Shown: positions 9,083 to 63,220 of the stretch, one piece after another
How the letters are laid out: every line of letters begins with the position of its first letter
Position numbering within the stretch: position 1 is the stretch's first letter
Notes under the pieces: model-generated
The model's database searches: none
The model's input: only the letters and a program-made list of their open reading frames with translations
What the model was told of the DNA's origin: nothing
Assembly: GCA_964634465.1 (NCBI GenBank)
Contig: CAZWLY010000009.1
Location: 80,397 to 144,396, forward strand
DNA: 64,000 nt
DNA from: an uncultured Thermodesulfobacteriota bacterium
GTDB taxonomy: Bacteria; Desulfobacterota; Desulfarculia; G963662305
Direction of reading: 5' to 3'
Translations under genes and position numbers: made by a program

Positions 9083-9104
9083 TAATTTAAAGACGCGTTC
9101 GTCC

Positions 9105-9141
9105 TCGGCCGGCCGGAGCTCACCACGGCTCCGGCCGGCCG
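9105..9141 (+). terminator. GC-rich hairpin (about 14-bp stem, 7-nt loop) downstream of gdhA, with no clear U-tract
   Basis: GGCCGGCCGGAGC-tcaccac-GGCTCCGGCCGGCC read from the sequence. Confidence 0.35.
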
Positions 9142-9180
9142 GGCCGCAACCTCGGCCAGCCGCAATTCGGGTCCGACTGA

Positions 9181-47011: not shown

Positions 47012-47379
47012 GCCGCCTTACGACCGGCAAGCGTGGCGAGGAGATCGCGGTCAAGACCCTCAAGAAACGGGGCTACAAGATCATCGACCGCAACGTCCGC
47101 CTGGCCTCGGGCGAAGTGGATATAATCGCCCGCCAAAAGAGGACGGTCGTCTTCGTCGAGGTCAAGACTCGGACTTCGGACAGGTTCGGTTCGCCGGCGG
47201 CGGCGGTCGATGCGGCCAAACAGCGCAAGCTGACCCGCCTGGCCGCCGAGTGGCTCCAGGCCCACCGACTGGAGGACGCCGCGGCCCGGTTCGACGTCGT
47301 CTCGGTCGTCCTGGACGGGCGGGGCGGGGAACGGGTGGAGGTCTTCGAGAATGCCTTCGAAGCCCAGTATTGGGACTGA
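47008..47379 (+). CDS. yraN: YraN family (UPF0102) predicted endonuclease
   Basis: 'GEVDIIAR...VVFVEVKTR'. Confidence 0.8.
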   Translation: MSRLTTGKRGEEIAVKTLKKRGYKIIDRNVRLASGEVDIIARQKRTVVFVEVKTRTSDRFGSPAAAVDAAKQRKLTRLAAEWLQAHRLEDAAARFDVVSVVLDGRGGERVEVFENAFEAQYWD

Positions 47380-48211
47380 ACCGGGCCGGCTGTTGATCGT
47401 GGCCACGCCCTTGGGCAACCTGGAGGACCTCTCGGCCAGGGCGGCCAAAAGCCTGGCCGAAGCCGGCATCGTCGCCGCCGAGGACACCCGCCGCACCCGG
47501 AAACTTTTGAGTCACCTGGGAATTTCGCCCCGGCTGATCTCCTGCCGGGAACACAACGAGGCCAAGGTCGGCCCCAAGTTGATCGAGGAGATCAAGGCCG
47601 GCGTCACCGTGGCTCTGGTCTCCGACGCCGGCACGCCCGGCCTGTCCGACCCCGGAGCCAGGCTGGTCGCCGCCGCCCATGCGGCCGGAATTCGGGTCGA
47701 GCCCATCCCCGGCCCGTCGGCCGTGGCCGCGGCCCTGTCGGTCTCCGGGCTCGGCGCCGACGCCTTCACCTTTGCCGGCTTTCCGCCGGCCAAGGCCGGA
47801 GCCCGAAAAAGATTCCTGGCCGGCCTGGCCGATCGAGCCGAAACCCTGGTCTTCTACGAGGCCCCCCACCGCCTGGCGGCCAGCCTGAGGGACATGGCCG
47901 CGATCCTCGGCCCCCGGTCGGCGACGCTGTGCCGGGAGCTGACCAAGCTCCACGAGGAGATCCGCTCGGCCGATCTCGATCGGTTGGCCCGCTGGGCCGC
48001 CGAGGGGGAGATCAAGGGCGAGATAACCCTGGTCGTGGCCGGGGCCGAGAAGGGCGTCGCCGAGGCCGATCCCCAGGCCGTCAAGGAGCTTTGGCGACGT
48101 CTCCGGGCCGAGGGCCTGTCGGCCAGTCAGGCGGCCAGAGAGGCGGCGGCCAGGTTGGGCCTCAGTCGGGCCGAAGTCTACAGATTGGGCTTGGAAGAGG
48201 ACGGGAGCTAG
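47351..48211 (+). CDS. rsmI: 16S rRNA (cytidine1402-2'-O)-methyltransferase
   Basis: 'LIVATPLGNLEDLSARA...AEDTRRTRKLL'. Confidence 0.85.
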   Translation: MPSKPSIGTEPGRLLIVATPLGNLEDLSARAAKSLAEAGIVAAEDTRRTRKLLSHLGISPRLISCREHNEAKVGPKLIEEIKAGVTVALVSDAGTPGLSDPGARLVAAAHAAGIRVEPIPGPSAVAAALSVSGLGADAFTFAGFPPAKAGARKRFLAGLADRAETLVFYEAPHRLAASLRDMAAILGPRSATLCRELTKLHEEIRSADLDRLARWAAEGEIKGEITLVVAGAEKGVAEADPQAVKELWRRLRAEGLSASQAAREAAARLGLSRAEVYRLGLEEDGS

Positions 48212-48333
48212 GGTAGTTTGGGAGCAGGGGGGCGATGCGGTCCGGGCTCCGGACGGCGGGCCGAGACGACTTGACAGGCTCGACTTCGAAGTGTATTCCA
48301 CAACCTACTTGTCTAGTCGGCTGGATTGACTGA

Positions 48334-48621
48334 ATGGACGAATCGGAAAACGGCCGGGTTCGCCGAACCTTGACTTTGACCAATCGCTCCGGGATTCACG
48401 CCCGCAGCGCCGCCAAGATCGTGGAGTTGGTCCAACGCCATGAGTGCAAGGTCGTCTTCACCAAGGGCGATCGCCGGGCCGAAGCCGACTCCATCCTCGA
48501 CTTGCTGACCCTGAGCTGTCCCAAGGGTTCCAGCGTGATGGTGGAGTGTGAAGGCCCTGGGGCGGCCGAGGCCATGGCCGATCTGGCCGCCCTTTTCGCC
48601 CGTAAGTTCGACGAGGAATAG
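48334..48621 (+). CDS. ptsH: Phosphocarrier protein HPr
   Basis: 'NRSGIHARSAAKIVE' with the active His and regulatory Ser. Confidence 0.85.
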   Translation: MDESENGRVRRTLTLTNRSGIHARSAAKIVELVQRHECKVVFTKGDRRAEADSILDLLTLSCPKGSSVMVECEGPGAAEAMADLAALFARKFDEE

Positions 48622-48627
48622 CCGACC

Positions 48628-50394
48628 GTGACCCAACGTCTCCAGGGTGTCGCCGCCTCGCCCGGTATCGTCATCGGCCAGGCCCGTCACGTCCAAAGGA
48701 CCCGAACCGAGGTCGTCTTCCAGGACATCATCGGCCCCGGCCAGGTGGTCAACCAACTCCACCGCCTCGATCTGGCCTTGGAAGAGGTCGAGGCCGACCT
48801 GACCGCGATCAAGGCTCGGGTGGAGAAGGAGCTGCCGTCCCACGTCTACCTCATCGACGCCCACCTGAAGATTTTGGCCGACCCCTTGTTCCAGCGGGAA
48901 GCGCGGCGGTTGATCGAGGGCGACATGATCAACGCCGAGTGGGCCGTGGTCGAGGCGGTGCGCCGCATCGGCGAGCGCTTCGAGGCCATCGACGATCCCT
49001 ACATCAGAAGCCGCCTCGAGGACGTGGAGGCGGTCGCCGACCGGGTGCTGAGAGTCCTGGCCGGCCAGGAAGACGAGGACCTGGGGGCGATCAAGGAGCC
49101 GGGCATCTTCATCGCCCACGACCTGTCGCCGACCGATACCACCCAGATTCGTCTGGACCGGGTGATGGGCTTCGTCACCGAGGCTGGCTCCCGGACCTCC
49201 CACACCGCCATCGTCGCCCAGTCGGTCCAACTGCCGGCCGTGGTCGGCCTGGAACGGGCCATGGAGAGCATCCCCAGCGGCTCGGTGATCATCGTCGACG
49301 GCACCTCCGGCCAAGTCATCGTCGATCCCGACGAGGAGACGCTCTTCGAGTTCGAGGAGCGCAAGGCGCGCTACGAAAGGTTTGTGGTCGACATCCGGCG
49401 CAAGGCCCACCTGCCGGCCGAAACCAGCGACGGTTGCCGGCTGAAGGTCCTGGCCAACATCGAATTGCCCAAAGAGGCCGTCACCGCCCTGGAGAGCGGG
49501 GCCGAGGGCATCGGCCTGGTCAGGACCGAATTCCTGTACCTCAATCGGGCCGACCTGCCCGGCGAGGAGGAGCTCTACGAGGCCCTGGCCTCGGTGGTCG
49601 ATATCATGAACGGCCGGCCGGTGACCATCCGGACCCTGGATTTGGGCGGCGACAAGTTCGCCCACCAGCTCGATTTAGTTCCGGAGATGAACCCGGCCAT
49701 GGGCGTTCGGGCGGTGCGGCTCTGCCTGCGCCGGCCGGACATCTTCAGAACCCAGCTTCGGGCCATTTTGAGGGCCTCGGCCCACGGTCCGGTCCGGGTC
49801 ATGTTCCCCATGATCAGCGGCATCAGGGAGATGGTCCAGTGCCGGGCCATCCTGGAGGCCTGCCAGGCCGAGTTGAAGAGGGAGGGACAGGAGTTCGATC
49901 CCGACCTGAAGGTCGGCTGCATGATCGAAGTCCCCTCGGCGGTGATCATCGTCGATCTTCTGGCCCGCCACGCCGACTTCTTCTCCATCGGCACCAACGA
50001 TCTGATCCAGTACTCTCTGGCCATCGACCGGGTCAACGAGTACGTGGCCCACATGTACCAGCCCTTCCACCCGGCCGTGCTGAGGATGATCAAGTCCACC
50101 ATCCAGGCCGCCGACGAGGCCGGCATTCCGGTGTCGATGTGCGGCGAGATGGCCGGCGAGCCCGGCGCGGTGCCGATGCTCATCGGGTTGGGGCTCAAGG
50201 AGCTGTCGGTCAACCCGGTCTCGGTGCCCCGGGTCAAGCAGATCACCCGCCTCGTCGCCGCCAGGGAGAGCCGCGAACTGGCCGACACGGCCCTGACCTA
50301 CGAGACCGAGGCCCAGGTCTCGAGCTACGTCACCGACAAGCTGGCCCAGATCGCTCCCGAAGCCTTCGGGAAAGGGGTGGTGATGCACTTCTGA
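48628..50394 (+). CDS. ptsI: Phosphoenolpyruvate-protein phosphotransferase (PTS Enzyme I)
   Basis: 'GSRTSHTAIVAQS' phospho-His and 'NDLIQYSLAIDR'. GTG start. Confidence 0.9.
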   Translation: MTQRLQGVAASPGIVIGQARHVQRTRTEVVFQDIIGPGQVVNQLHRLDLALEEVEADLTAIKARVEKELPSHVYLIDAHLKILADPLFQREARRLIEGDMINAEWAVVEAVRRIGERFEAIDDPYIRSRLEDVEAVADRVLRVLAGQEDEDLGAIKEPGIFIAHDLSPTDTTQIRLDRVMGFVTEAGSRTSHTAIVAQSVQLPAVVGLERAMESIPSGSVIIVDGTSGQVIVDPDEETLFEFEERKARYERFVVDIRRKAHLPAETSDGCRLKVLANIELPKEAVTALESGAEGIGLVRTEFLYLNRADLPGEEELYEALASVVDIMNGRPVTIRTLDLGGDKFAHQLDLVPEMNPAMGVRAVRLCLRRPDIFRTQLRAILRASAHGPVRVMFPMISGIREMVQCRAILEACQAELKREGQEFDPDLKVGCMIEVPSAVIIVDLLARHADFFSIGTNDLIQYSLAIDRVNEYVAHMYQPFHPAVLRMIKSTIQAADEAGIPVSMCGEMAGEPGAVPMLIGLGLKELSVNPVSVPRVKQITRLVAARESRELADTALTYETEAQVSSYVTDKLAQIAPEAFGKGVVMHF

Positions 50395-50411
50395 GACCGC
50401 CCTCCGGCGTC

Positions 50412-50873
50412 TCAGTAGCGCCGCCGGGCCATCTCCCGTTCGGCGTCGCGTTTCTCCTGGCGGGCCCGGATGACCTGGCGTTTGTCGTGGAGCTTCTTGC
50501 CCTTGGCCACGCCCAACTCTATTTTGGCCCGGCCGTCCTTGAAGTAGATCGACAGCGGGATGAGCGAATAGCCCTTCTCGGCCGTCTTGCCGACCAGCTT
50601 CCTGATCTCCCGCTTGTGGGCCAACAGCTTGCGGGTCCGCATCGGCTCGTGGTTGCCGTAATGGGCGTGGGGGTAGGGGCTGATGTGGACGTTCTCCAAC
50701 CACAGCTCGCCGTCCTTGATCCGGGCGTAGCCGTCCTTGAGATTGACCCGGCCCTCGCGCAGACTCTTGACCTCGGTTCCCTTCAGGACCAGGCCCACCT
50801 CGAGCTTGTCTTCGATGAAGTACTCGAAACGAGCCCGCTTGTTCTTGGCGATCAACTTTATTCCGCCGGCCAT
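50412..50873 (-). CDS. smpB: SsrA-binding protein
   Basis: 'NKRARFEYFIEDKLEVGLVLKGTEVKS'. Confidence 0.9.
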   Translation of the reverse strand: MAGGIKLIAKNKRARFEYFIEDKLEVGLVLKGTEVKSLREGRVNLKDGYARIKDGELWLENVHISPYPHAHYGNHEPMRTRKLLAHKREIRKLVGKTAEKGYSLIPLSIYFKDGRAKIELGVAKGKKLHDKRQVIRARQEKRDAEREMARRRY

Positions 50874-51120
50874 CTCTCTTCTGGCTCCATCCGGTCTGCT
50901 GTTCGGGCCTGGCCCGTCGCCCGCCGCGGCTTCGCCGTCGGGTCGAGCCCCATTAATAACCCCATTTCGGACTTTTGGGGAGGGCGCGAGCCGAAATTTT
51001 TTGAAAAAAGGACCGAGGCTCTATCAACCCGGCCGGAATTCTGGCTTTTCGGCCCCAAGGGGCTTGACATTCGGCCTCGGTTTTGGTCTTATACGATCTG
51101 CTTTTTTACGGGAGGATAGT

Positions 51121-51210
51121 ATGGGTTCCGTGGTTAAGTGGCGCCGCAAGAAGATCCGCAAGCACAAGTATAAAAAGCTCCGGGCGCGGATGCGGCATAA
51201 AAAACGCTAG
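51121..51210 (+). CDS. bS22-like (AURKAIP1/COX24-type) 29-aa basic ribosomal micro-protein
   Basis: 'MGSVVKWRRKKIRKHKYKKLRARMRHKKR' resembles mycobacterial bS22 '[33 protein letters not shown]'. The GGGAGGA RBS is about 6 nt upstream. Confidence 0.5.
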   Translation: MGSVVKWRRKKIRKHKYKKLRARMRHKKR

Positions 51211-51389
51211 TCCGAGCCGTCCTCGCGCCGCCGGCGCATGCCTTCGGCCAGGTAGGACATCGCCAACAGGAACAGGGCGAGTAAAACCACCCAGATCCAA
51301 TCGGTCAGCCGCCAGAACGACCAGGCGATGACGTAGGCCAGGACGAAGCTGCCGGCGGCCCGGATGAGAAGCTTGAGGACAGGGTTCAT
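51207..51389 (-). CDS. Small (about 60 aa) two-TM membrane protein, hypothetical
   Basis: 'MNPVLKLLIRAAGSFVLAYVIAWSFWRLTDWIWVVLLALFLLAMSYL'. It has high GC3 and a GGGAGCG RBS. Coordinates are +/-1. Confidence 0.3.
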   Translation of the reverse strand: MNPVLKLLIRAAGSFVLAYVIAWSFWRLTDWIWVVLLALFLLAMSYLAEGMRRRREDGSD

Positions 51390-51427
51390 TTTTCGCTCCC
51401 GCATTGTTTTTTCGGTAATCGGTAATG

Positions 51428-51471
51428 AGAGGCCCTTGGGAAATCCCAAGGGCCTCTATTTTGCTTTTTTG
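51428..51471 (+). terminator. Intrinsic-terminator-like hairpin (12-bp perfect stem, AAAT loop) followed by T-rich tract; an A-tract on the other side means it could be bidirectional
   Basis: GAGGCCCTTGGG-aaat-CCCAAGGGCCTC-tattttgcttttttgg read from the sequence. Confidence 0.4.
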
Positions 51472-51547
51472 GTGGCGGTGCAGGGACTTGAACCCCGGAC
51501 GCTACGGATATGAGCCGTATGCTCTAACCAACTGAGCTACACCGCCC
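51471..51547 (-). tRNA. tRNA-Met (anticodon CAT); elongator-like D-arm; tRNA-Ile2 (lysidine) cannot be excluded
   Basis: Manual cloverleaf of the reverse complement: GGCGGTG acceptor, GTAGCTCAGTTGGTTAGAGC D-arm, CUCAUAU anticodon loop, TTCAAGT T-loop, encoded CCA. Confidence 0.85.
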
Positions 51548-51581: not shown

Positions 51582-52133
51582 TCAAGCATTGGCGGCGAGA
51601 GACGGGCCCTTGTCGCCCCCCGAGCCGACCGATATCCAGAACACCAGTCCCACGAGGCCGGCGGCCAGGTTGATCAGCACGTCCCGGACCTCGCCGACCC
51701 TTCCGGGCAAGATATACTGGATCACTTCGTCGCCCGCCCCGGCCAGAAGCAGCAGGCCCAGGGCCAGAAACCAGGCCGCCGGTCGGCCCAGGCGGGACTC
51801 GGCCGAGCGCAAGGCGGCCCAGGCCAGAAGCCCGTATTCCAGCAGGTGGATCGTCTCGGCCGGCTGGCTCTTGGTGTAGATCAGCAACGCCCAGCCGCCG
51901 AGGGCCGCCCCGGCCGCGCCGGCCAGGCGAAGGGCGGCGCCGGGCGGCCGCCGGGCGGCGATCCGGGCCAATCCCAGAACAAAGGCCGAACCGACGACGA
52001 TCACGGTCAGCCACAGCGCCGAGTCGCGGCCGAAGGCGTCGGTCAGGCCGGCGTTCAGCCGCCGGGCCCAGGGCAGCGAGGCGTAGATCACCGCCGTACC
52101 GGCGATGAATGGGGCGTCGATCGACAGGCGCAT
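51582..52133 (-). CDS. VanZ family membrane protein
   Basis: 4 TM helices and 'GDEVIQYILPGRVGEVRDVLINLAG' VanZ-like motif. Confidence 0.7.
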   Translation of the reverse strand: MRLSIDAPFIAGTAVIYASLPWARRLNAGLTDAFGRDSALWLTVIVVGSAFVLGLARIAARRPPGAALRLAGAAGAALGGWALLIYTKSQPAETIHLLEYGLLAWAALRSAESRLGRPAAWFLALGLLLLAGAGDEVIQYILPGRVGEVRDVLINLAAGLVGLVFWISVGSGGDKGPSLAANA

Positions 52134-52474
52134 GGGGCGATTATAGACGGGCCCGCCGGCCGGGGAAAGCCTCTCCGGGTCGATCCGGGCGCCGGTTCGC
52201 TCGACGTCGCTCCGGCCGGCCGGTCGATTTTCATCGCCGCCCAGCGTGGGCCGGTTCTGGTTGCGTATTTGTAACCGGACTCGCCGGCCGGTTACGTTTC
52301 CGGTCCGACCGCCGGCATCTATCTGTAACTACCCGCCAAATCGGGCCAAGCTTTCTGTTGCCTTTTTGCGCTGGGGCGTGCTAAAGTACCACTCGGCGCT
52401 CTGTTTAACAAGTTTCGGCACAACCTGACAATTTGCCTCCATACTTCGCCCGGCCCTTTCAGGAGATAACGAGA

Positions 52475-54025
52475 GTGGTCCTGTTGCGGTTTGCGGTTCC
52501 GGTCGTGTTGTTCGCCTTGCTGTCGCTCTGGCCGGGCCGCGCCGCCGCCGAGACGGCCCAAATGGTGCAGGAGCTCTACACCGGGGCCAGGTTCGACGTC
52601 ATGGACGAGAACTACGACGCCGCCCTGGCCAAACTGGTCAAAGCCCAGGAGCTCGCCCCCGAAGACTTGAGAATCGTCACCTTGATGGCCAGGGTCTTCG
52701 CCCTTCAGGGGCGCGAGGACGAAGCCGTCGATCTCTACGACGCCCTGATCGCCCGGGACCCGGCCCGTTTCGGGCTGCTCAATTTCGAAGTCGCCTATCT
52801 CCTTCAAAAAAAGGAGCGTTACGAGGAAGCCCTGGCCCGGTTCAAGGCCGCGGAGAAGGCCGATTTCCTTCGGGCCATCAAGGAACAGGGCCTGACCTAC
52901 ATGAAGCTGGGCAAGTTCGCCGAGGCCGACGCCGCCTTCGCCCGGGTACGCGAAGCCAAGGACGCGCCGCCAAAGACCCGCCAGCTCTTTCTGTACCTGG
53001 GCGCTCAGACCAATTACCATCGCCGGGACTACAAAACGGCGCTCAAGCGCCTGGATAAAGCCTACCGCCTCGATCCAAGTTCGGACCTGGTTTCGGACAT
53101 CAAGGCCTTCCGCAAGACCACGCTCACCGCCATGCGCCAGGCTCGGCCCTGGCGGCTGTACGTGAGCGCCGCCTACCGCTACGACGACAACATCTACCTC
53201 AATCCTTTCGAGGAAAACCCGAGCGGTAAAAAGACGACCGACAAGGGCGACTCCTCCCTCCAGACCGGCCTCACCTTCTCCTACCGGTTGGCCGAGTTGT
53301 TGGGCGCGACCATCGGCCTTACCGCCGGGGCGAGCAAGTTGAGCTACTTCCACGAATCGGCCGCCGATTTCGCCGCCCTGAACATCGGCGCCTACGTCGG
53401 CAAGTCCTGGAAGACGATGGGGGTGAGATTGCCCTACCAGTACACCTACTACTGGGCCGGGGCCAGCCTGGAGGAGAGACTGGCCGCCCACAGCCTGAAC
53501 CCGGTCTTCTTCTGGCAGATGACCGACCGTTTCCGGACCGAGGTCTCGGGTATGGCCCATTGGAAGAACTACCGGGACCAGACTCCGGACGCCTTCTACT
53601 ACGGCCTGGGCGCGGTTCACATCCTGAACTTCGGCGATCAAGCCAAGTACGTCCGCCTGGGCTACCAATTCGCCGTGGAGGACGCCGACGACGGCCAGTC
53701 GGGCTACCGGATCTGGGAGGTGACCCTGGGTGGTGGAGCGCCCATCTACGGCCCGCTGGCCTTCGACCTGGGCCTCACCCTGGCCTACTACACCTACAAC
53801 GAGCGGCCCAGTTGGTACTACGGGTTGTCCGGAACCGAGCCCTTCACCCGGCGCGACAGGCAGATCAGGGTTTCGGTCCGGATAAGCTATCGTTTCTCGG
53901 AGCGGTGGCAGTTCGGTCTGGGCTACTACTTCACCCACAACGACTCCAACGTCGGCGCCAACGACTACGACCCGTTCAAATTTCAAAAAAACCTCTTTAG
54001 CTTGTCGGTTTTCGGGGCCTTCTGA
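52475..54025 (+). CDS. Outer-membrane protein: N-terminal TPR-like helical region plus C-terminal beta-barrel ending in Phe (Slam/DUF560-like architecture)
   Basis: Signal peptide 'LFALLSLWPGRAAAE'. TPR-like region about 30-230. An alternating aromatic/Gly-rich barrel region follows, with C-terminal '...SLSVFGAF'. GTG start after AGGAG. Confidence 0.55.
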   Translation: MVLLRFAVPVVLFALLSLWPGRAAAETAQMVQELYTGARFDVMDENYDAALAKLVKAQELAPEDLRIVTLMARVFALQGREDEAVDLYDALIARDPARFGLLNFEVAYLLQKKERYEEALARFKAAEKADFLRAIKEQGLTYMKLGKFAEADAAFARVREAKDAPPKTRQLFLYLGAQTNYHRRDYKTALKRLDKAYRLDPSSDLVSDIKAFRKTTLTAMRQARPWRLYVSAAYRYDDNIYLNPFEENPSGKKTTDKGDSSLQTGLTFSYRLAELLGATIGLTAGASKLSYFHESAADFAALNIGAYVGKSWKTMGVRLPYQYTYYWAGASLEERLAAHSLNPVFFWQMTDRFRTEVSGMAHWKNYRDQTPDAFYYGLGAVHILNFGDQAKYVRLGYQFAVEDADDGQSGYRIWEVTLGGGAPIYGPLAFDLGLTLAYYTYNERPSWYYGLSGTEPFTRRDRQIRVSVRISYRFSERWQFGLGYYFTHNDSNVGANDYDPFKFQKNLFSLSVFGAF

Positions 54026-54056
54026 TATGTTGAGGAGGAGTGAAGAGTCGTAAGTC

Positions 54057-55145
54057 ATGATCCGGGCGCGCACCATAGTCCTGGCTCTGCTGCTGGCCCT
54101 CGGCGTGGCTTCGTTCGCCGCCGCGGCCGAGCCCCAGGCCATCGGCCGCATCTACGGCGCGGTCGGCGATTGCCGGGTGGTCAACAAGGACTTGGGCCGG
54201 GATCTCGCCGCCCGGAAGGGGATGGCCCTCTACCAAGGCGACACCATCTTCACCGGAGCAGACTCCACGGTCAAGATCGTCCTGGCCGACGACAGCCTGG
54301 TGCGCGTGGGAGCCGAATCGGAGCTGGCTCTCGACCAGTTCAGACTGGACGTCCAGGCCCAGGAGCGCGAGACTACGCTCAGACTGCCTCTGGGTAAGGT
54401 CAAGGTTCTGGTCAACGATCTTTTCGGCTACAAGGAACGCCGCTTCGAGATCAAGACGCCCACCGCCGTGGCCGGTGTTCGCGGTACCTTGATGGCGGTG
54501 ATCGTCGAGTCGCCGTCCCTGACCAGCGTCGTCGGTTACGACAATCCGGTGGTGGTCTACAACCCCGCCTTCCCGGACCAGGTGGTCGTGCTGACCAACG
54601 TCCAGTTGACCCAAGTCTTCGGCGACAACCCGCCCTCAGAGCCCCGTGACTTGACGCCTCAGGAAGAGGAGAGATTCCGGCAGCTCTTCCCCGACATGCC
54701 TGACGAGTCATCGAGCTCGGAGTCCGGCGGTGAGGGCGGCGGCACGGGCGGTACGGGCGGCACGGGTGGAACGGGCGGCACGGGCTCGCCGGGGGTGAGC
54801 GGGAACACGCCGACTACCGTCCAGACCACGACCACCACCGCGCCGACCACAACCACGACCACGACGACGACCACCACCACGACCACGACGACGACCACCA
54901 CCACGACCACCACGACCACGACCGAGCCGACCACCACGACGACGACCACCACCACGACCACGACCACGACCGAGCCGACCACGACCACCACGACGACGAC
55001 CACCACGACGACGACCACCACCACGACCACGACGACGACCACCACTCTGCCTCCGCCGCCGACGACCACGACCACCACCGTCCCGACCACGACCACCACC
55101 ACGACCACCACCACCCTGTCTCCGGGCTTGAGGCCCTGCTCGTAA
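54057..55145 (+). CDS. Secreted FecR-domain protein with a C-terminal poly-threonine tract of about 100 residues
   Basis: Signal peptide, then a FecR-like beta region ('ALYQGDTIFTGADSTVKIVLADDSLVRVGAESEL...'), then (GGT)4 and T-runs interrupted by EP/LPPPP/VP. Confidence 0.7.
   Translation: MIRARTIVLALLLALGVASFAAAAEPQAIGRIYGAVGDCRVVNKDLGRDLAARKGMALYQGDTIFTGADSTVKIVLADDSLVRVGAESELALDQFRLDVQAQERETTLRLPLGKVKVLVNDLFGYKERRFEIKTPTAVAGVRGTLMAVIVESPSLTSVVGYDNPVVVYNPAFPDQVVVLTNVQLTQVFGDNPPSEPRDLTPQEEERFRQLFPDMPDESSSSESGGEGGGTGGTGGTGGTGGTGSPGVSGNTPTTVQTTTTTAPTTTTTTTTTTTTTTTTTTTTTTTTTTEPTTTTTTTTTTTTTTEPTTTTTTTTTTTTTTTTTTTTTTTLPPPPTTTTTTVPTTTTTTTTTTLSPGLRPCS
54800..55115 (+). repeat. Near-perfect ACC/ACG trinucleotide (Thr-codon) repeat, about 300 bp
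   Basis: Read directly: (ACC/ACG/ACA)n with rare GAG-CCG / CCG interruptions. Confidence 0.9.
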
Positions 55146-55236
55146 CCGCCGCCTTGCTCGGGTCAGCCGAATCGGACTTCGTCGGGCTCATTTCCCTGGC
55201 ATTCCCCCCTGTCGCCTTGCCGGTGGAGAGCGGTCG

Positions 55237-57828
55237 ATGAAGCGCTCGGTCCTGATCGACGGTCTGGTCCTGGCCGCCTCGGTCGGCTTTACGGCCTACC
55301 TTTTGCCCTGGTCGCTGGTCCTTTCGCCCTCCATCCCGGCCGGCGGCGACACCACCTCCCACTTCGCCGCCCTGGTCCACTTCAAAGACTACGTCCTGCC
55401 CCAGTGGCGGCTTTGGGGCTGGCACCCCGGCAACCTGGCCGGCTTCCCGCTCTTTCAGTTCTATTTCCCCTTGCCGCCGCTGGTGATCGTCGGCTTGAGC
55501 GCTTTCTGGGGCCTGGCGCCGGCCTTCAAGCTGGGGGCGCTGATCCCGGCCCTGGCCTTGCCGGTGAGCGTCTATTTCTGTTTGAGACGCCTGGGGCTGG
55601 GCTTTCCCGGTCCGGCCTTTGGAGCCGCTTTTTCGCTGAGCTTCCTTCTGGCCGAGACCAATCAGGTCTGGGGCGGCAACCTGGCTTCGATTCTGGCCGG
55701 CGAGATTTGCTACGCCTGGGCCTTCAACCTGGTCCCGATCTACCTGGGGTCGCTGTACGCCTGGATGCGAAGCGACGCGCCGTCCGGCCGAGGGGCGATC
55801 CGGCTGGCCGTCCTGCTCCTCTTCATCGGACTCAGCCACGCCTACGCCCTCTTGTTCGCGCTTGCGACCGGGCTCTACTTCCTTCTGGACCGGGGCCGGT
55901 TCAAGGCGGCCGCGCTGGGCCTGTTCGTCGTCTACGCTCTGGCCTTCTTGCTTTTGGGGCTGTGGCTGATTCCGATGCTGGTCTACACCCCCTTGACCGA
56001 GATGTTCAACTTCGTCTGGGTCGTCGATTCCTGGCGGGAGTTTACGCCGACGACGCTCCTGCCGGTCCTCGTCTTGGCCGCCTTGGCCGGGCCGCTGGCC
56101 TGGCGGTGGGGCGAGACGGTCGATCGGGATCGGGCCGGCTTCCTGCTCTTCTGGGTCGTGGCCGCGGCCAGCCTCTACTTTCTGGCCCCGTTCATGAACT
56201 CGATCACTATCCGCTTCGTCCCCTTCGCCCACCTGGCCGCCGTCCTGTTGGCCGCCCAGGGGCTGAGGCTCATCACCCGCCGCCTGGCCGGGCGCGGTCT
56301 GGTCGCGCTCATCGTCGTCCTCGCTTCGGTGGTCTGGACCGGCGGCCGAATGAATTATCTCGACCGCTGGCTCAGTTGGAACAACGCCGGGCTGGAGGCG
56401 ACGCCGGCCTGGTCGGAGGTCGAGCGCCTGACCGAGTTCCTGCGACCGAAGGGTCCGGCCTGGGAGGCGTCCCGGGTGGTCTACGAGCATTCGCCGCTGA
56501 ACGATCAGGCCGGCACACTCAGAATCTTCGAGTCGCTGCCGATTCTGGCCGGCCGGGCCACCCTGGAGGGCGCCTACCTCCAGGCCAGCCCCAACGCGCC
56601 GTTCATCTTCTACCTCCAGTCAGAGGTCAGCCGCCGCAGCTCGTCGCCCTTGCCCGGCTACGTCTACACTCGGCTCAATCTTGGCCGGGCCGTGGAGCAC
56701 ATGCGCCTCTACAACGTCGGCCAATACATCGTCGTCGAGCCGGAAACCCGGAAATTGGCCGACCGCCAGCCGGGCCTGATTCTGGAGCGGGAGTTCGGGA
56801 GCTACTCGGTCTACCGGGTACTCGGCAACCGGGACGCCTACGCCGTTACGCCCGAGCGGGCCCCGGTGCTGGTCATCACCGATCGACCCCAGGCGATCGC
56901 CTTCGAGTGGTTCAGGTTTTCCGATCTGAAGACGCCGCTCGTCTTCGCCCGCCGGATGCCGGCCGGGGCCGGGGAGCGCTTCGCCGGGGTGTTGATCGAT
57001 TCCGGCCGGGACGACGAGGCGTTGTTCAAGCTGATCAGGGAGAACCGGCTGCCCAAAAAGGAGTTGGCCGGCCGGCCCATCGTCGAGAAGATCGCCCCGG
57101 AGCGAATCGAGCTGAGGGGGCTCCAACCCGGCCGGCCGGTGGTGATCAAGATGTCCTATCACCCGGCCTGGCGGACTTTGAGCGGCGAGGAGATATTCAG
57201 GGTCTCTCCGGCCTTCATGCTCGTCTTCCCCGACTCCGACAGGTTGACCCTGGTCTGCGGCCCGACCTGGGCCAACCACCTCGGCCTGGCGCTGAGCGTC
57301 CTCGGGTTGATCCTGATCGGCCTCCTCGCCTGGCGGCCGGGGTTGGCTTTCCCGCTCCGGCCGGAACCGAGGGGGGCGGAAAGGACCGGGCCCCGGCCGT
57401 GGTTGACGGCGTCGTTGCTCGTGGTGTGGGCGATCGGCCTGGCTGGGCTGTGGAGCCGGCACGACGACGCTTCGACCATCCTGGCCAAAGCCAGGGCGCT
57501 CAGGGCCGAGGGCCGTCTCGAGGAGGCCAGGGCCAAGTTCAGGGAGGGGTTGAAGCGCTTCGAGATGTCGGTCGTGGTCGATTATACGTGGTACGATCTG
57601 GCCATGACCTACTACGCCGGCCGGGATTACGCCGAGGCGGAGAGGCTGCTGAAAGAGGTCGTCCGGCGCTTTCCGGACTCGATCCTCATGCCCGAGACCC
57701 TCTACCACTTGGGTTGGTGCGCTGAAAAGCAGGGCCGGGCGGCCGAGGCCGAAGCGTACTGGCGGCGGCTGAGACAGGAGTTTCCGGAAAGCGGATGGGC
57801 CCAGGAGATTGAGAAGCATGGCTCTTAA
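55237..57828 (+). CDS. Large polytopic membrane protein, GT-C/YfhO-like glycosyltransferase architecture with C-terminal TPR domain
   Basis: About 11-13 N-terminal TM helices with an acidic first-loop motif 'GGDTTSHFAALVHFKD'. A soluble domain of about 320 aa follows, then one more TM helix ('LGLALSVLGLILIGLLAW'), then 3-4 TPRs. The family call is from architecture only. Confidence 0.45.
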   Translation: MKRSVLIDGLVLAASVGFTAYLLPWSLVLSPSIPAGGDTTSHFAALVHFKDYVLPQWRLWGWHPGNLAGFPLFQFYFPLPPLVIVGLSAFWGLAPAFKLGALIPALALPVSVYFCLRRLGLGFPGPAFGAAFSLSFLLAETNQVWGGNLASILAGEICYAWAFNLVPIYLGSLYAWMRSDAPSGRGAIRLAVLLLFIGLSHAYALLFALATGLYFLLDRGRFKAAALGLFVVYALAFLLLGLWLIPMLVYTPLTEMFNFVWVVDSWREFTPTTLLPVLVLAALAGPLAWRWGETVDRDRAGFLLFWVVAAASLYFLAPFMNSITIRFVPFAHLAAVLLAAQGLRLITRRLAGRGLVALIVVLASVVWTGGRMNYLDRWLSWNNAGLEATPAWSEVERLTEFLRPKGPAWEASRVVYEHSPLNDQAGTLRIFESLPILAGRATLEGAYLQASPNAPFIFYLQSEVSRRSSSPLPGYVYTRLNLGRAVEHMRLYNVGQYIVVEPETRKLADRQPGLILEREFGSYSVYRVLGNRDAYAVTPERAPVLVITDRPQAIAFEWFRFSDLKTPLVFARRMPAGAGERFAGVLIDSGRDDEALFKLIRENRLPKKELAGRPIVEKIAPERIELRGLQPGRPVVIKMSYHPAWRTLSGEEIFRVSPAFMLVFPDSDRLTLVCGPTWANHLGLALSVLGLILIGLLAWRPGLAFPLRPEPRGAERTGPRPWLTASLLVVWAIGLAGLWSRHDDASTILAKARALRAEGRLEEARAKFREGLKRFEMSVVVDYTWYDLAMTYYAGRDYAEAERLLKEVVRRFPDSILMPETLYHLGWCAEKQGRAAEAEAYWRRLRQEFPESGWAQEIEKHGS

Positions 57829-60040
57829 ACGGAGAAACATCATCCCCGCCGGTTTGGGACTGGGTTTGACCCTGCTCGTCATGGTTTTATATGTGGTCGG
57901 GACGTCGTTCACCGACCTGATGGAGCTCAAGGCCCTCGACGCCATGTTCCTGTTCCGGGGCCAGGTCCCCATGGTCACCGACAAGGTGGTCGTGGTGGCC
58001 GTGGACGAGCGCAGCCTGGACGAAGCGGGGCGCTGGCCCTGGCCCAGAGAGAAGATGGCGGCCTTGATCAAGGCCGTCTCGGATCAGGGCGCCAAGGCCA
58101 TCGGCCTGGACATCGGCTTCTTCGAGCCGGACAATCGCTTCGACGCCCAGACCATCCTGGCCATCAATCGGGCGGCCGAGGCGGGCAAACCGCTGTCGTT
58201 GGAGGAGATCGTCGCCCGCTTCCACCCGGATTACGTCCTGGCCCAGACCATCGCCTCCATTCCGGCCGAGGTGGTCCTGGGCTACTTCTTCCACATGTCC
58301 AAGGAGGCGGTCTCCCACCTCAAGGCCGAGGAGATCAAGGCCCGCCGCCGGGCCATCGACCGCTTCGCCTTTCCGGCCGTCCGCTATCGCTCCGAGGCGG
58401 CCATGGAACGGCCGCTGGTGACCGCCTACGCTCCGGAGAACAATCAGCCCGTTCTCATCCAGGCCGCCCGGGCGGCCGGCTACTTCAACATCATTCCCGA
58501 CGGGGACGGCGTGGCCCGACGGATCAACCTGGTCATCCAGTGCGGCGATCGCCTCTATCCGGCCATGAGTCTGGTCACCCTGTCGCGCTTTTGGGGGGTG
58601 CCGCTGCCGGTGGTGGACGTCAAGGACTTCGGCCTGGAGAGCCTGACGCTGGGTCCGGTGAGGATCCCGGTGGACGAGAAGGGCCGGGCCTGGATCAACT
58701 TCCGGGGCGGACGGGGCGCGGTGCCCCGCTACGAGGCGGTGGACGTGCTCAGGGGCAAGCTGCCCAAGGGCGCGCTCAAGGACAAGGCGGTCATCCTCGG
58801 CGTGTCGGCCACCGGCGTCGGCGACGTCCGGGCGACGCCCTTCGAGACCACCCATCCCGGCGTGGAGATCCAGGCCCAGGTCGTGGACAACATCCTCTCC
58901 GGCCAGTTCCTCTTCCGGCCGTCCTGGGCCCGCCTCTTCGACCTGATCGCCATCTTGGGTCTGGGCCTGATCGCCGCCTTCGTCATGAGCGCGCTCAGGC
59001 CCAGCCGCGGCTGGTGGGTGGTCGCCGTTCTGGGCGTCGGCTTCGTCATCCTCGGCTACCAGTTGTTCTTGCAGGGCTACCTCCTCAACCTGACCCACCC
59101 CTTGCTGGCCTTGGTGGTCAGCGCCGTGGGGTTGACGGCCTATCGCTACCTGACCGAAGAGAGGGAGAAGAAGTACATCCGCCACGCCTTCCAGCACTAT
59201 CTCAACCCGTCGGTCATCGAGCAGGTGGTCAGCCACCCCGAGGGGCTGAAACTGGGCGGCCAGAAGCGGGTGCTGACCGTGCTCTTCTCCGACATCCGGG
59301 GCTTCACCTCCATCTCCGAGAAACTGGAGCCCGAGGTTCTATCCCACGCCCTCAACACTTACCTGGACAGGATGACCGAGGTCGTGTTCGAGCACGACGG
59401 CGTTTTGGACAAATACATCGGCGACGCGGTCATGGCCTTTTTCGGCGCGCCCATGGACCAGCCCGATCACGCCGCCCGGGCCTGCCGGACGGCGCTGAGG
59501 ATGGTCGAGGAGCTGAAGAAACTGGGGGCGTTCTTCGACGAGATGGGCGTGCCCCACTGGCAGATCGGCATCGGCATCAACACCGGGCCGATGGTCGTCG
59601 GGAATCTCGGCTCCCGCTTGAGGTTCGACTACACCGTCATCGGCGACAACGTGAACACCGCCTCCCGCCTGGAGGGCCAGACCAAGGGCTACGGCGTGGG
59701 CATCATCGTCGGCCAGGCCACGGTGGAGGAGTGTCGGGACCGGTTCCATTTCCGGATCCTGGACCTGATCAGGGTCAAGGGCAAGACCGAACCGGTGGCC
59801 ATCTATGAGCTGGTCGGGCCGGCCGAGGAGCCCAAGCCGGAGATCGTCGATCTGGCCGAGACGGCCTTCAAGACCTATCTCGATCGGGACTTCGCCTTGG
59901 CCGAGGCTCTGCTGGAGCAGATTCTCAGCGTCGATCCCGGCGACGCCCCGGCCGCGCTGCTGAAGGCCCGCTGCCGGGAACTGATAGCCAACCCGCCGCC
60001 CGAAGACTGGGACGGGGTGGAGACCAAGACGACCAAGTGA
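57818..60040 (+). CDS. CHASE2 sensor domain adenylate/guanylate cyclase
   Basis: N-terminal TM plus CHASE2 ('VVVAVDERSLDEAGRWPWPR'), three TM helices, then the class III cyclase core 'VLTVLFSDIRGFTSISE...YIGDAVMAFFGAP'. The ATG at 57818 after AGGAG overlaps the upstream gene by 11 nt. Confidence 0.85.
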   Translation: MALKRRNIIPAGLGLGLTLLVMVLYVVGTSFTDLMELKALDAMFLFRGQVPMVTDKVVVVAVDERSLDEAGRWPWPREKMAALIKAVSDQGAKAIGLDIGFFEPDNRFDAQTILAINRAAEAGKPLSLEEIVARFHPDYVLAQTIASIPAEVVLGYFFHMSKEAVSHLKAEEIKARRRAIDRFAFPAVRYRSEAAMERPLVTAYAPENNQPVLIQAARAAGYFNIIPDGDGVARRINLVIQCGDRLYPAMSLVTLSRFWGVPLPVVDVKDFGLESLTLGPVRIPVDEKGRAWINFRGGRGAVPRYEAVDVLRGKLPKGALKDKAVILGVSATGVGDVRATPFETTHPGVEIQAQVVDNILSGQFLFRPSWARLFDLIAILGLGLIAAFVMSALRPSRGWWVVAVLGVGFVILGYQLFLQGYLLNLTHPLLALVVSAVGLTAYRYLTEEREKKYIRHAFQHYLNPSVIEQVVSHPEGLKLGGQKRVLTVLFSDIRGFTSISEKLEPEVLSHALNTYLDRMTEVVFEHDGVLDKYIGDAVMAFFGAPMDQPDHAARACRTALRMVEELKKLGAFFDEMGVPHWQIGIGINTGPMVVGNLGSRLRFDYTVIGDNVNTASRLEGQTKGYGVGIIVGQATVEECRDRFHFRILDLIRVKGKTEPVAIYELVGPAEEPKPEIVDLAETAFKTYLDRDFALAEALLEQILSVDPGDAPAALLKARCRELIANPPPEDWDGVETKTTK

Positions 60041-60050
60041 GCCGCCCGGT

Positions 60051-60623
60051 TCACCCCTGTTCGACCAGGCGCCGGGCCAGGTCCCGGGCCCGATCCCGGA
60101 CCTCCGGCGACAGTCGATCCGGGGTGGTGCAGCCGCCGACGAACAGCTCGCCGACCGGCCGGGCCTTGGCGTAATCCGCGATCCGCCTGAACGAAGTCAC
60201 GATCTCCTCGCCGTTGTTTTCGTACTCGTCGGCGGCCGTCACCAGCAGGGCCTGGCGCTGGCCTTCGACCAGCGAGGCGTGGCCCGGCCGGCCGTAGTCG
60301 ACCACCAGCGAGTACCCCCGATCGAGGAAGGCCTTCATTTGGGCGCTGAAACCCCAGAAGTAGAGCGGTGAGGCGAAGACGACGGCCTCGGCCTTGATCA
60401 TTTTGTCCAGCAGGGGACCGGCGTCGTCTTCTTGGACGCAGGCCGGCCGATCGGGGTGCTCCCGGCACTTGGCGCAGCCCAGGCAGCCGTTGATCTTCAG
60501 CCGCGCCAGGTCGATGTGTTCGACCCGGTGTCCCAGGCCGGCCAATTCGTCTTCCACCCAACTTAAAACGGCGGCGGTGTTGCCCTTGGGGCGGGGGCTG
60601 CCGAGGAGAGTCAGGACGTTCAT
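60051..60623 (-). CDS. NAD(P)H-dependent FMN reductase / flavodoxin-fold protein with a Cys cluster
   Basis: 'MNVLTLLGSPRPKGNTAAV' flavodoxin-like nucleotide loop and 'CLGCAKC...C'. I used the internal Met start (ATGA overlap with the upstream gene) and not the 60911 track start. Confidence 0.7.
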   Translation of the reverse strand: MNVLTLLGSPRPKGNTAAVLSWVEDELAGLGHRVEHIDLARLKINGCLGCAKCREHPDRPACVQEDDAGPLLDKMIKAEAVVFASPLYFWGFSAQMKAFLDRGYSLVVDYGRPGHASLVEGQRQALLVTAADEYENNGEEIVTSFRRIADYAKARPVGELFVGGCTTPDRLSPEVRDRARDLARRLVEQG

Positions 60624-62122: not shown

Positions 62123-63220
62123 TTAGAAGACGAGGGTGGTGTAAAGGCCGACCCGTATACCGTTGCCGAGGTCGGCGCCGGAGGTGTCCTCCCCAAAGTC
62201 GTACCAGGCCAGTTCCGGAACGAAGGTGATACTGCCGAAACCGATCCAGTAGTTGGCGTAAACAGCGGCCGTGTGGGGATTGCCGGTCCACTGAGCGACG
62301 CCGTTGAGGTCGTCCCGCGAGGCGTGGGCATAGCCGCCGCCGAGATGCAAGTTACCTATCTTGAGGTCGCCGAACACCCGGAACTGTTTGTGGTCGGCCC
62401 GGTGCTCGAAGGTGGAATCGAAAACGGGGAGGGCCGGGCCGGCCACGGGATTGGTTCCGGTGCTGTTGATGCCGTAACCGACGCCCACCGTGAACCCGAT
62501 CAGGCCGAAGTCGCCGGCCAACTCCAGGCCCAGGTCCAGAGAGTGCCAGTCGACCGTCGAGCCGTCGGAGACTTTGGTCAGACGCTCCATCTCCCATCTG
62601 AACCAGGGATAGACGTTGACCCGTCCGAAGCTCATGTCCAGGGCGGCCGCCACGGCCGGGAGATAACGAGAAGAGATCCCGTCGTCCACGCCGTCCCCGT
62701 TGACGTCGAAGTTGCCGGTATGGGTCGGCGATTCGAGCGCGAACTTGAACTTGTACTTGGTTCCCAGGGTGAGCCTGATCTGCTCGGGCCGGTTCCACCA
62801 GTCCTTGCCGAAGCCGAGGATGCCGGCCGTTCCCCTCAGCACCGAGGCGGGAAAGTAGGATTCCTCCAGAGAGCCGGTCTGGCCGAAGAGGATGCTCCCG
62901 CCGTTCCAGTTGTACCTGAACCAGGTTCGCCGGGTGTAGACGTTGTTCCCCTGGGTGTTGGAGAGCAGGCCGATCTCCGCGTAGGCTTCATATTTCTTGT
63001 CGGCGCTCTGGTAGGTGAAGTTGAGATTGGAAGTGGACATGTGGAAGATGTCGAGGGCGATGATACTGTTGCCGGTCGACGAACTGTTGGAGTCCTCGCC
63101 AAGATAACTCAACTCGAATCTCAAGGCGCCGCCCACCTTGACGCTGCCGGCCAGAGCCACTGAGGACAAGCCCAAGGTCAAGAGGATGGCTCCAACGAAC
63201 GCCGTCAATTTTTTTGACAT
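62123..63220 (-). CDS. Outer-membrane porin-like beta-barrel protein
   Basis: Signal peptide 'LTLGLSSVALAGS'. Alternating hydrophobic/aromatic strands with C-terminal '...GLYTTLVF'. Strong GGGAGG RBS. Confidence 0.5.
   Translation of the reverse strand: MSKKLTAFVGAILLTLGLSSVALAGSVKVGGALRFELSYLGEDSNSSSTGNSIIALDIFHMSTSNLNFTYQSADKKYEAYAEIGLLSNTQGNNVYTRRTWFRYNWNGGSILFGQTGSLEESYFPASVLRGTAGILGFGKDWWNRPEQIRLTLGTKYKFKFALESPTHTGNFDVNGDGVDDGISSRYLPAVAAALDMSFGRVNVYPWFRWEMERLTKVSDGSTVDWHSLDLGLELAGDFGLIGFTVGVGYGINSTGTNPVAGPALPVFDSTFEHRADHKQFRVFGDLKIGNLHLGGGYAHASRDDLNGVAQWTGNPHTAAVYANYWIGFGSITFVPELAWYDFGEDTSGADLGNGIRVGLYTTLVF

Follow-up and report, generated by a model that had tools for sequence, protein, structure and literature searches.

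A GT-C-fold membrane protein encoded beside a poly-threonine FecR protein: a candidate O-glycosylation enzyme for a proposed trans-envelope cyclic AMP sensor in Desulfobacterota

In a 64,000-nucleotide (nt) stretch of DNA from an uncultured Thermodesulfobacteriota bacterium (GenBank assembly GCA_964634465.1, contig CAZWLY010000009.1, positions 80,397 to 144,396 of the forward strand; the whole stretch is called the window below), four closely packed genes encode an outer-membrane (OM) barrel protein with tetratricopeptide repeats (TPRs), a secreted FecR-domain protein with a poly-Thr tail, a membrane protein with a GT-C fold, and a CHASE2 class III cyclase. We consider it on balance probable that the four genes form one operon for trans-envelope cyclic AMP (cAMP) signaling with a dedicated glycosylation enzyme. 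In the best reading of the evidence, the GT-C enzyme would O-glycosylate the poly-Thr stalk of the sensor, in analogy to the streptococcal GtrB/PgtC2 pair and to the TMTC/PMT enzymes. The features that carry the argument are listed here by their positions in the window.

52433-54025, + strand: gene 1, OM TPR-barrel protein, 530 amino acids (aa)
54057-55145, + strand: gene 2, secreted FecR-domain protein with a poly-Thr tail, 362 aa
54824-55115, + strand: poly-Thr tract in gene 2, ACC/ACG/ACA codon repeats, interrupted by EP, LPPPP, and VP
55237-57828, + strand: gene 3, GT-C-fold glycosyltransferase candidate (PF10131), 863 aa
55348-55350, + strand: codon for D38 of G36-G37-D38 in gene 3, an invariant motif just past the first transmembrane helix (TM1)
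57818-60040 (ATG start, 740 aa) or 57809-60040 (TTG start, 743 aa), + strand: gene 4, CHASE2 class III cyclase

A Pfam scan assigned the gene 3 product to PTPS_related (PF10131; E value, 1.3e-31), with TPRs at the C terminus. PF10131 is a member of the GT-C clan CL0111 with no known function, and HHpred relates it to the N-terminal membrane domains of TMTC proteins (PMC7801869). Residues 1-372 of the protein form a polytopic membrane domain and residues 375-675 a periplasmic alpha/beta domain; two further TM helices (678-741) lead to a C-terminal TPR domain (residues 745-862, nt 57469-57822; TPR_6, 9e-14; TPR_2, 2e-13), which is predicted to be periplasmic by a count of the membrane passages. 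We modeled it with AlphaFold2 (AF2) from 22 homologues, and the model reached a mean predicted local distance difference test score (pLDDT) of 90.4. When the model was compared with the PDB using Foldseek, the significant matches were all GT-C enzymes, namely AftD (5.7e-8), AglB, STT3, ArnT, and Pmt4, and the C-terminal domain matched the TPR domain of YbgF. The GT-C assignment made from the sequence alone was thus confirmed by both HMM and structure searches, and we regard the protein as having a GT-C fold and as a candidate glycosyltransferase. The same early reading had also called it YfhO/GT-C and TMTC-like with a C-terminal TPR domain. Of this, the fold and the TPR domain stand and the families do not: at an E value of at most 0.1, Pfam gave no match to PMT, PMT_2, TMTC (DUF1736), or YfhO, and membership in the YfhO, PMT, or TMTC families was rejected for want of Pfam support.

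GT-C enzymes carry a catalytic acidic residue just after TM1, in the first extracytoplasmic loop. In the gene 3 product, an acidic residue is present at this place: D38, which follows TM1 (residues 3-22) and precedes the first loop helix, belongs to the first periplasmic loop, and G36-G37-D38 is invariant in the alignment of 22 sequences, which reaches down to 34% identity. D38 is therefore a candidate for the catalytic or acceptor-loop acidic residue. Homologues with the same PF10131-TPR combination are widespread in Desulfobacterota and beyond (361 matches in a word-limited search).

The gene 2 product starts with a hydrophobic signal-like segment ending in AAA, followed by AEP. This segment has no Cys, so by sequence the protein is not a lipoprotein. 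Only 61 residues, signal-like segment included, precede the FecR domain (PF04773; residues 62-154, nt 54240-54518; E value, 9.8e-13), which is the sole domain found by Pfam; no cargo domain of the type XI secretion system (T11SS) was matched. Behind it comes a Gly/Thr repeat, with (GGT)n at 54738-54785, and then the poly-Thr tail, which closes with ...TLSPGLRPCS. Residues 250-352 (103 residues) contain 86 Thr with a longest run of 26, and from residue 216 to the end of the protein the Thr content is 62%; the tract was also seen by a tandem-repeat finder. The sequence-only description of a secreted FecR protein with a nearly pure poly-Thr tract of about 100 residues was accurate. A role as an anti-sigma factor was considered for the protein and rejected, as it has no anti-sigma domain and no extracytoplasmic function (ECF) sigma gene was found with it. 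The FecI/FecR/FecA layout, in which a TM-anchored anti-sigma FecR protein is accompanied by an ECF sigma factor and a TonB-dependent receptor, is absent as well, the flanking genes encoding a VanZ-like protein and an FMN reductase and the other cluster genes the barrel, the GT-C enzyme, and the cyclase.

About 22 of the 32 complete poly-Thr FecR proteins that we collected end with a proline-rich motif, TLPGPPxPPG (T-L-P-G-P-P-x-P-P-G/S), as seen for example in loci L013, L032, L048, L055, L064, L088, L094, L095, and L099. The C terminus of the protein in the window (...TTLSPGLRPCS, encoded at 55090-55145) is a degenerate form of this motif. We speculate that this peptide docks to one of the TPR domains. 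The nearest named relatives of the FecR protein in NCBIfam are the leptospiral surface proteins LipL45 and Lsa33. A homologue search with the protein returned only 16 proteins, and the window's protein was not among them. The poly-Thr repeat interrupts independent short-read assemblies of the same or related loci (the contigs of L001 and L002 begin 152 nt 5' of the GT-C gene, and that of L169 ends in such a repeat), and therefore genes of this kind are truncated, missing, or under-represented in protein databases, which probably explains the small number of FecR proteins recovered.

We investigated the gene neighborhoods in about 160 related loci. A scan of species-representative genomes with a GT-C alignment gave 80 loci, in which open reading frames (ORFs) were called and searched iteratively with the proteins of the window. 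For the reverse view, metagenome DNA was scanned with an alignment of the FecR domain, which gave another 80 loci, and individual homologues were looked up. The poly-Thr tail was found to track the GT-C gene. Where a FecR gene and a barrel gene lie within 10 kb of a GT-C gene, the FecR protein has a poly-Thr(/Ser) tail in all 12 cases; the tails vary in length and sequence, and such tails are present in only 21 of the 75 classifiable FecR genes (28%) from the FecR-query loci (binomial p ~2e-7 for 12/12 against this base rate). Within the FecR-query set, a GT-C gene adjoins 3 of the 21 poly-Thr FecR genes and none of the 54 others (Fisher p = 0.02). Shared ancestry is left out of account in both statistics, and on many metagenome contigs, being short, the neighbors cannot be seen; we therefore read the statistics as strong hints rather than proof.

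The individual relatives behave in the same way. In L084, whose FecR protein is about 41% identical to that in the window, a barrel gene, a FecR gene with a tail of TPPGQDKDK repeats, and a CHASE2 cyclase gene are present and a GT-C gene is not; L086 and L168 have neither a poly-Thr tail nor a GT-C gene. The tail occurs together with GT-C in L088, L094, and L095, and together with GT-C and a family 2 glycosyltransferase (GT2) in L085. L102 was considered as a counterexample and rejected, since its contig ends on the GT2 partner gene, and the GT-C gene probably lies just past the end. The proposal that the GT-C protein and the poly-Thr tract belong together thus agrees with the comparison, and the relatives without the tail also lack the GT-C gene. 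The sequence-only reading had named loss of the tract or of synteny in relatives as evidence against it, and the comparison did not refute it on these grounds. Furthermore, ten GT-C/GT2 loci without FecR (L024, L025, L029, L034, L035, L045, L059, L062, L075, and L076) encode other secreted proteins with poly-Thr linkers, and no comparable secreted poly-Thr ORF was found in control loci totaling 537 kb or elsewhere in the window. Among these other proteins, those of L024 and L029 share a C-terminal domain, and those of L034 and L035 are small and helical. Because the GT-C gene travels with the poly-Thr tail, the tail is the likely substrate of the GT-C enzyme, as judged from sequence comparison.

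The linkage of the other cluster genes is retained in relatives, though with rearrangements. In 12 of the 80 GT-C loci, from Desulfarculaceae, Desulfobacteraceae, Desulfatiglandales, NaphS2, and Desulfatibacillum, a barrel gene and a FecR gene lie no more than 10 kb from GT-C, and in 11 of the 80 CHASE2 proteins, mostly with a cyclase domain, are encoded within that distance. The order in the window, barrel-FecR-GT-C-CHASE2, recurs in L007 and L009; in L010 it is permuted (GT-C, cyclase, barrel, FecR), and L046 and others are divergent. That the linkage survives rearrangement argues for a functional connection, and synteny is kept across several Desulfobacterota lineages. The barrel and FecR genes form a widespread pair, often beside CHASE2 cyclases, and the cyclase is a frequent but not an obligatory neighbor of this pair.

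The most conserved neighbor of the GT-C gene encodes a GT2 protein of about 235 aa; in 53 of the 80 loci it lies within 10 kb, usually right up against the stop codon of GT-C. Its best NCBIfam matches, all weak, are ArnC, PgfS, and Dol-P-hexose transferase, and it is likely to be a polyprenyl-phosphate-sugar synthase. A lipid-sugar synthase of the GT2 family and a GT-C transferase are a classic pairing. In L006 and L007, relatives that share the gene order of the window, the GT2 gene lies just past the cyclase gene.

For the gene 4 product, the description as a class III nucleotidyl cyclase with a CHASE2 sensor was supported by Pfam, which places the periplasmic CHASE2 domain at residues 20-384 (nt 57875-58969; E value, 5.6e-60) and the Guanylate_cyc domain at residues 486-658 (nt 59273-59791; E value, 1.1e-24). 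The chain runs from TM1 through CHASE2, three TM helices, and the cyclase domain to a short TPR-like C terminus, with hydrophobic segments at 8-26 and 373-440. By eye, the motifs LDKYIGDAVMA and FDYTVIGDNVN put Lys and Thr at the substrate-specifying positions. Lys/Asp or Lys/Thr at these positions goes with ATP and residues of the Glu/Cys type with GTP, and the Lys/Thr combination is typical of class IIIb adenylate cyclases; these two motifs suggest that the enzyme is an adenylate rather than a guanylate cyclase. In L009, a Desulfarculaceae relative, a second ORF with a cyclase domain (8722-10344) lies directly 3' of the CHASE2 cyclase gene.

The gene 1 product has a signal peptide, a periplasmic TPR domain at about residues 36-236 (nt 52538-53140), and a barrel of 14 strands at residues 240-529 (nt 53150-54019) in an AF2 model with a pLDDT of 92.1. 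In a database the same gene is called with 516 aa (P0137), 14 residues fewer. The solved barrels closest to the model are those of the 14-stranded OmpG and CymA, and, taken as a whole, the architecture is most similar to that of the polysaccharide exporters BcsC, PelB, and PgaA. Homologues were searched with the barrel domain alone, as a full-length query was swamped by TPR words. An exhaustive search found only 111 representatives, nearly all of about 500 aa with a C-terminal barrel; a barrel profile gave nothing meaningful against PDB sequences, and tblastn of the barrel against plasmids gave no match.

The sequence-only reading had likened this protein to Slam/DUF560 OM proteins. The N-terminal TPR region and the 14-stranded barrel fit that likeness, but membership in the Slam family is marginal. 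Besides TPRs, Pfam reported PF04575 (SlipAM) at 23.0 bits with a cutoff of 22; among 10 further family members one scored 23.1 bits and one 15.9; PF04575 was matched by 3 of the 11 proteins overall, and it is matched by fewer than 10 of 41 homologues. TPR_Slam matches 26 of the 41. We did not file gene 1 as a Slam gene, because the PF04575 match is marginal and sporadic, because the neighboring gene product has no features of T11SS cargo, and because the T11SS literature that we examined is silent on FecR and CHASE2. The protein may act like Slam, like a polysaccharide secretin, or simply as an OM anchor. In L169, the neighbor of the closest barrel homologue (55% identity) is a gene at 535-2769 whose 744-aa product combines cNMP_binding and Patatin domains and, judging from these, may be a phospholipase effector regulated by cAMP; the downstream FecR gene in this locus has a poly-Thr tail, inside which the contig ends.

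The arrangement of the genes in the window is compact. ORF calls reproduced the four packed ORFs on one strand at the coordinates first reported, and Pfam reproduced the domain architecture of all four proteins. Gene 3 and gene 4 overlap by 11 nt with the ATG start at 57818, as the sequence-only reading had it, or by 20 nt with the TTG start at 57809; the gaps that it gave as 32 and 92 nt are actually 31 nt (genes 1-2) and 91 nt (genes 2-3). An identical 740-aa call for gene 4 was found on independent contigs. Both neighbors of the cluster, a VanZ-like gene at 51582-52133 and an FMN reductase gene at 60051-60623, lie on the opposite strand, so the four genes were taken as one block. Each of the four has conserved homologues elsewhere, and they are therefore real genes and not chance ORFs. 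A possible promoter precedes the first gene:

52405-52432, + strand: sigma-70-like promoter match directly 5' of gene 1, 9/12 positions matched

Two sigma-70-like sites were found with 0.7 expected, which is weak evidence only.

Much of the sensor has a counterpart in Sinorhizobium meliloti, whose CHASE2 cyclases CyaK and CyaD depend on the OM barrel protein NsrA for perceiving a protein signal (PMC7529298, PMC13001267). According to the published loop prediction, residues 600-1200 of NsrA make up its barrel portion (PMC7529298). On S. meliloti pSymB, the gene directly before cyaK, whose end meets the cyaK start, encodes 1190 aa. A FecR domain occupies residues 66-160 and TPRs 378-587, and the C-terminal region gave only a subthreshold match to OMP_b-brl_3; we take this protein to be NsrA from the position of its gene. 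NsrA with CyaK, CyaD1, and CyaD2 has a parts list like that of the window, comprising FecR, TPR, an OM barrel, and a CHASE2 class III cyclase. However, the cyaK-upstream protein is a single FecR-TPR-barrel chain, whereas in the window the parts are encoded by separate genes with the TPR-barrel before FecR. Its barrel region is larger, and hhalign with the profile of the window barrel gave a probability of 0.2%, that is, no detectable homology. The linker is not poly-Thr, and there is no GT-C gene in the cyaK cluster.

Pairing of FecR with CHASE2, which the sequence-only reading had called recurrent, is documented. A cAMP cluster of Campylobacterota encodes a CHASE2 cyclase, a phosphodiesterase, a FecR-domain protein, and a TPR protein (PMC9239204), and the BiofilmReg operon of Burkholderia combines a LysM-FecR protein with a CHASE2 histidine kinase (PMC5192318). 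Both share the FecR-CHASE2 pairing with the window, and the Campylobacterota cluster also shares a TPR protein; neither has a glycosyltransferase or a reported poly-Thr tail, and the output of BiofilmReg is a kinase. Knowledge of these two systems is confined to genomic observations or to a regulator mutant. The early statement that no described system has this composition consequently applies to the four-part set but not to the core of FecR, TPR, OM barrel, and CHASE2 cyclase, which is present in S. meliloti and noted in Campylobacterota. The four-part composition was not found in full-text literature searches, which cover few articles from subscription journals. The core sensor module is thus already known, and what is new is the dedicated GT-C enzyme with its presumed poly-Thr substrate.

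For the enzyme, the closest parallel is found in streptococci, where GtrB/PgtC2 and PgfS/PgfM1 glycosylate Ser/Thr-rich disordered tails and shield them from proteolysis (PMC12041528). As proposed here, a GT2 lipid-sugar synthase and a GT-C enzyme act together on extracytoplasmic poly-Ser/Thr tails, and in the Pgf cluster the substrates are encoded beside the enzymes. The streptococcal GT-C enzymes, however, belong to the YfhO family, have no TPR, and occur in Gram-positive hosts, with chaperones, penicillin-binding proteins (PBPs), and adhesins as substrates, whereas the enzyme in the window combines PF10131 with TPRs in a diderm host and has a sensor partner as its presumed substrate. The protein O-mannosyltransferases (GT39/GT105), namely eukaryotic TMTC1-4 and PMT and the actinobacterial Pmt/Ppm1, are likewise GT-C systems that use polyprenyl-phosphate sugars on Ser/Thr-rich targets. 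On the noncytoplasmic side, PMTs have a MIR domain and TMTCs their C-terminal TPRs, as is predicted for gene 3; the extra periplasmic alpha/beta domain and the two late TM helices are specific to the gene 3 family. Slam/T11SS proteins (DUF560, PF04575), finally, share with gene 1 a periplasmic N-terminal TPR domain, a 14-stranded barrel, and an adjacent gene for a secreted partner. The sequence relation is marginal, though, the FecR partner lacks the hallmarks of cargo, and the T11SS papers examined describe neither Desulfobacterota nor a FecR/CHASE2 context.

Several observations weigh against one operon in which the gene 3 enzyme modifies the FecR tail. Most of the 80 GT-C loci have none of the three partners, and in about 70% of them no poly-Thr gene lies within 10 kb. 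The closest GT-C homologue (P0002, 57% identity) is encoded in a GT4/Wzy polysaccharide cluster without a FecR or CHASE2 gene. Six loci with barrel-FecR(poly-Thr)-GT-C (L005, L013, L032, L048, L055, and L064) have no CHASE2 cyclase within 10 kb. In several other loci, what follows the poly-Thr FecR gene is a gene for a giant secreted protein that carries Beta_helix, TSP3, or DUF4347 domains (L088, 12030-19433; L094, 11598-15605; L099, 1579-4647; L102, 5474-11455). We therefore treat the cyclase as an optional partner, and since giant proteins take its place, the barrel-FecR pair serves more than one kind of partner. Finally, the whole 64 kb of the window contains no GT2 homologue, and the donor pathway is therefore not seen in it.

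Some of these points would be expected if the GT-C and GT2 enzymes decorate a nonprotein periplasmic acceptor, such as lipopolysaccharide (LPS), exopolysaccharide, or another envelope glycan. The poly-Thr tract would then be an unglycosylated flexible linker, and the adjacency would reflect a shared envelope theme or coregulation. ArnC/ArnT, GtrB/GtrC, and CsbB/YfhO are pairs of the kind invoked for such acceptors. The surroundings of P0002, among GT4 glycosyltransferases and a Wzy_C protein, fit this explanation, as do the many GT-C loci without a nearby poly-Thr ORF, the lipid- and glycan-modifying AftD and ArnT among the best structural matches, and the resemblance of the barrel protein to BcsC, PelB, and PgaA. 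We nevertheless hold a nonprotein acceptor to be unlikely, because it does not account for the poly-Thr tails of all 12 GT-C-neighboring FecR genes or for the absence of GT-C beside the 54 FecR genes without such tails. Close relatives without the tail lack the enzyme too, yet keep the barrel and the cyclase; the ten loci with unrelated secreted poly-Thr proteins stand against none in control DNA; and the GT-C gene of the window lies within the operon and overlaps the cyclase gene.

Gene 1 could also be read as a Slam/type XI OM protein that exports the FecR protein or its glycosylated tail to the surface as an adhesin or receptor, with the cyclase a mere neighbor; this corresponds to the surface display proposed in the sequence-only reading. 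Its TPR-plus-14-strand architecture, the PF04575 match just above the gathering score, and the TPR_Slam matches speak for this, and the barrel gene is immediately 5' of FecR in 24 of the 46 loci with enough upstream flank, which resembles the adjacency of T11SS OM proteins and their cargo. The leptospiral relatives of the FecR protein are surface proteins, and some loci continue with giant beta-helix adhesin-like proteins. Such export seems improbable to us, though, given how sporadic the PF04575 matches are, the lack of a lipobox and of a T11SS cargo domain in the FecR protein, and a T11SS literature that does not mention FecR or CHASE2. By analogy, the S. meliloti FecR-TPR-barrel chain suggests that FecR stays in the periplasm facing CHASE2, and the best barrel matches are OmpG and CymA, the PDB holding no Slam structure for comparison. 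That a chance insertion put the GT-C gene between FecR and the cyclase in this lineage, with no functional tie, we think very improbable. The different context of the closest GT-C homologue and the variable gene order would agree with it, but the linkage persists through rearrangements across several orders, poly-Thr and GT-C covary strongly, and the genes in the window are tightly spaced, the first three separated by 31 and 91 nt and the last two sharing 11 nt; chance neighborhood is already disfavored by these observations.

O-glycosylation of the FecR tail by the GT-C enzyme could proceed as follows. A GT2 enzyme encoded outside the window would load a sugar onto polyprenyl phosphate, and the lipid-linked sugar would be flipped to the periplasmic face. 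There the TPR domain of the GT-C enzyme may hold the unfolded tail, so that the Thr tract would be O-glycosylated as it emerges from Sec. The resulting stiff, protease-resistant stalk would set the FecR domain between the OM barrel/TPR protein and CHASE2, and the proline-rich C-terminal end may serve as a docking peptide. The FecR domain would then act on the CHASE2 domain, and events at the OM would thereby modulate cAMP synthesis. The glycosylation, stalk, and FecR-to-CHASE2 steps are those that we infer. More tentatively still, and with some doubt, we suggest that PF10131-TPR proteins and their GT2 partners are widespread periplasmic protein O-glycosyltransferases of diderms with a specificity for poly-Thr, bacterial counterparts of TMTC/PMT, and that in the window a glycosylated rod spanning the periplasm couples the OM barrel to the CHASE2 cyclase via FecR, docked by a peptide of the LPGPPxPPG type.

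If this is true, a class of substrates and an activity open to testing could be assigned to the PF10131-TPR family, which would be the first functional lead for PF10131. The mucin-like O-glycosylation recently demonstrated on disordered Ser/Thr tails in streptococci would extend to the diderm periplasm, and a rigid glycosylated spacer would offer a structural idea of how FecR proteins and OM barrels signal to CHASE2 sensors.

Outside the cluster, the region upstream (47351-51546) contains housekeeping genes, which were named by reading their translations: an rsmI-like methyltransferase, HPr, phosphotransferase system (PTS) enzyme I (48334-50394), SmpB (50412-50873, - strand), and tRNA-Met (51470-51546, - strand), the last lying beyond the VanZ-like gene as seen from the cluster. 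On the downstream side, an isochorismatase gene follows beyond the FMN reductase gene. The G+C content is about 65% throughout, and the cluster shows no compositional break. A 365-aa ORF at 62123-63220 (- strand), also called as a gene on L001, has an N-terminal hydrophobic segment, no Pfam match, and the ending ...LVF; its product looks like a beta-barrel OM protein or porin.

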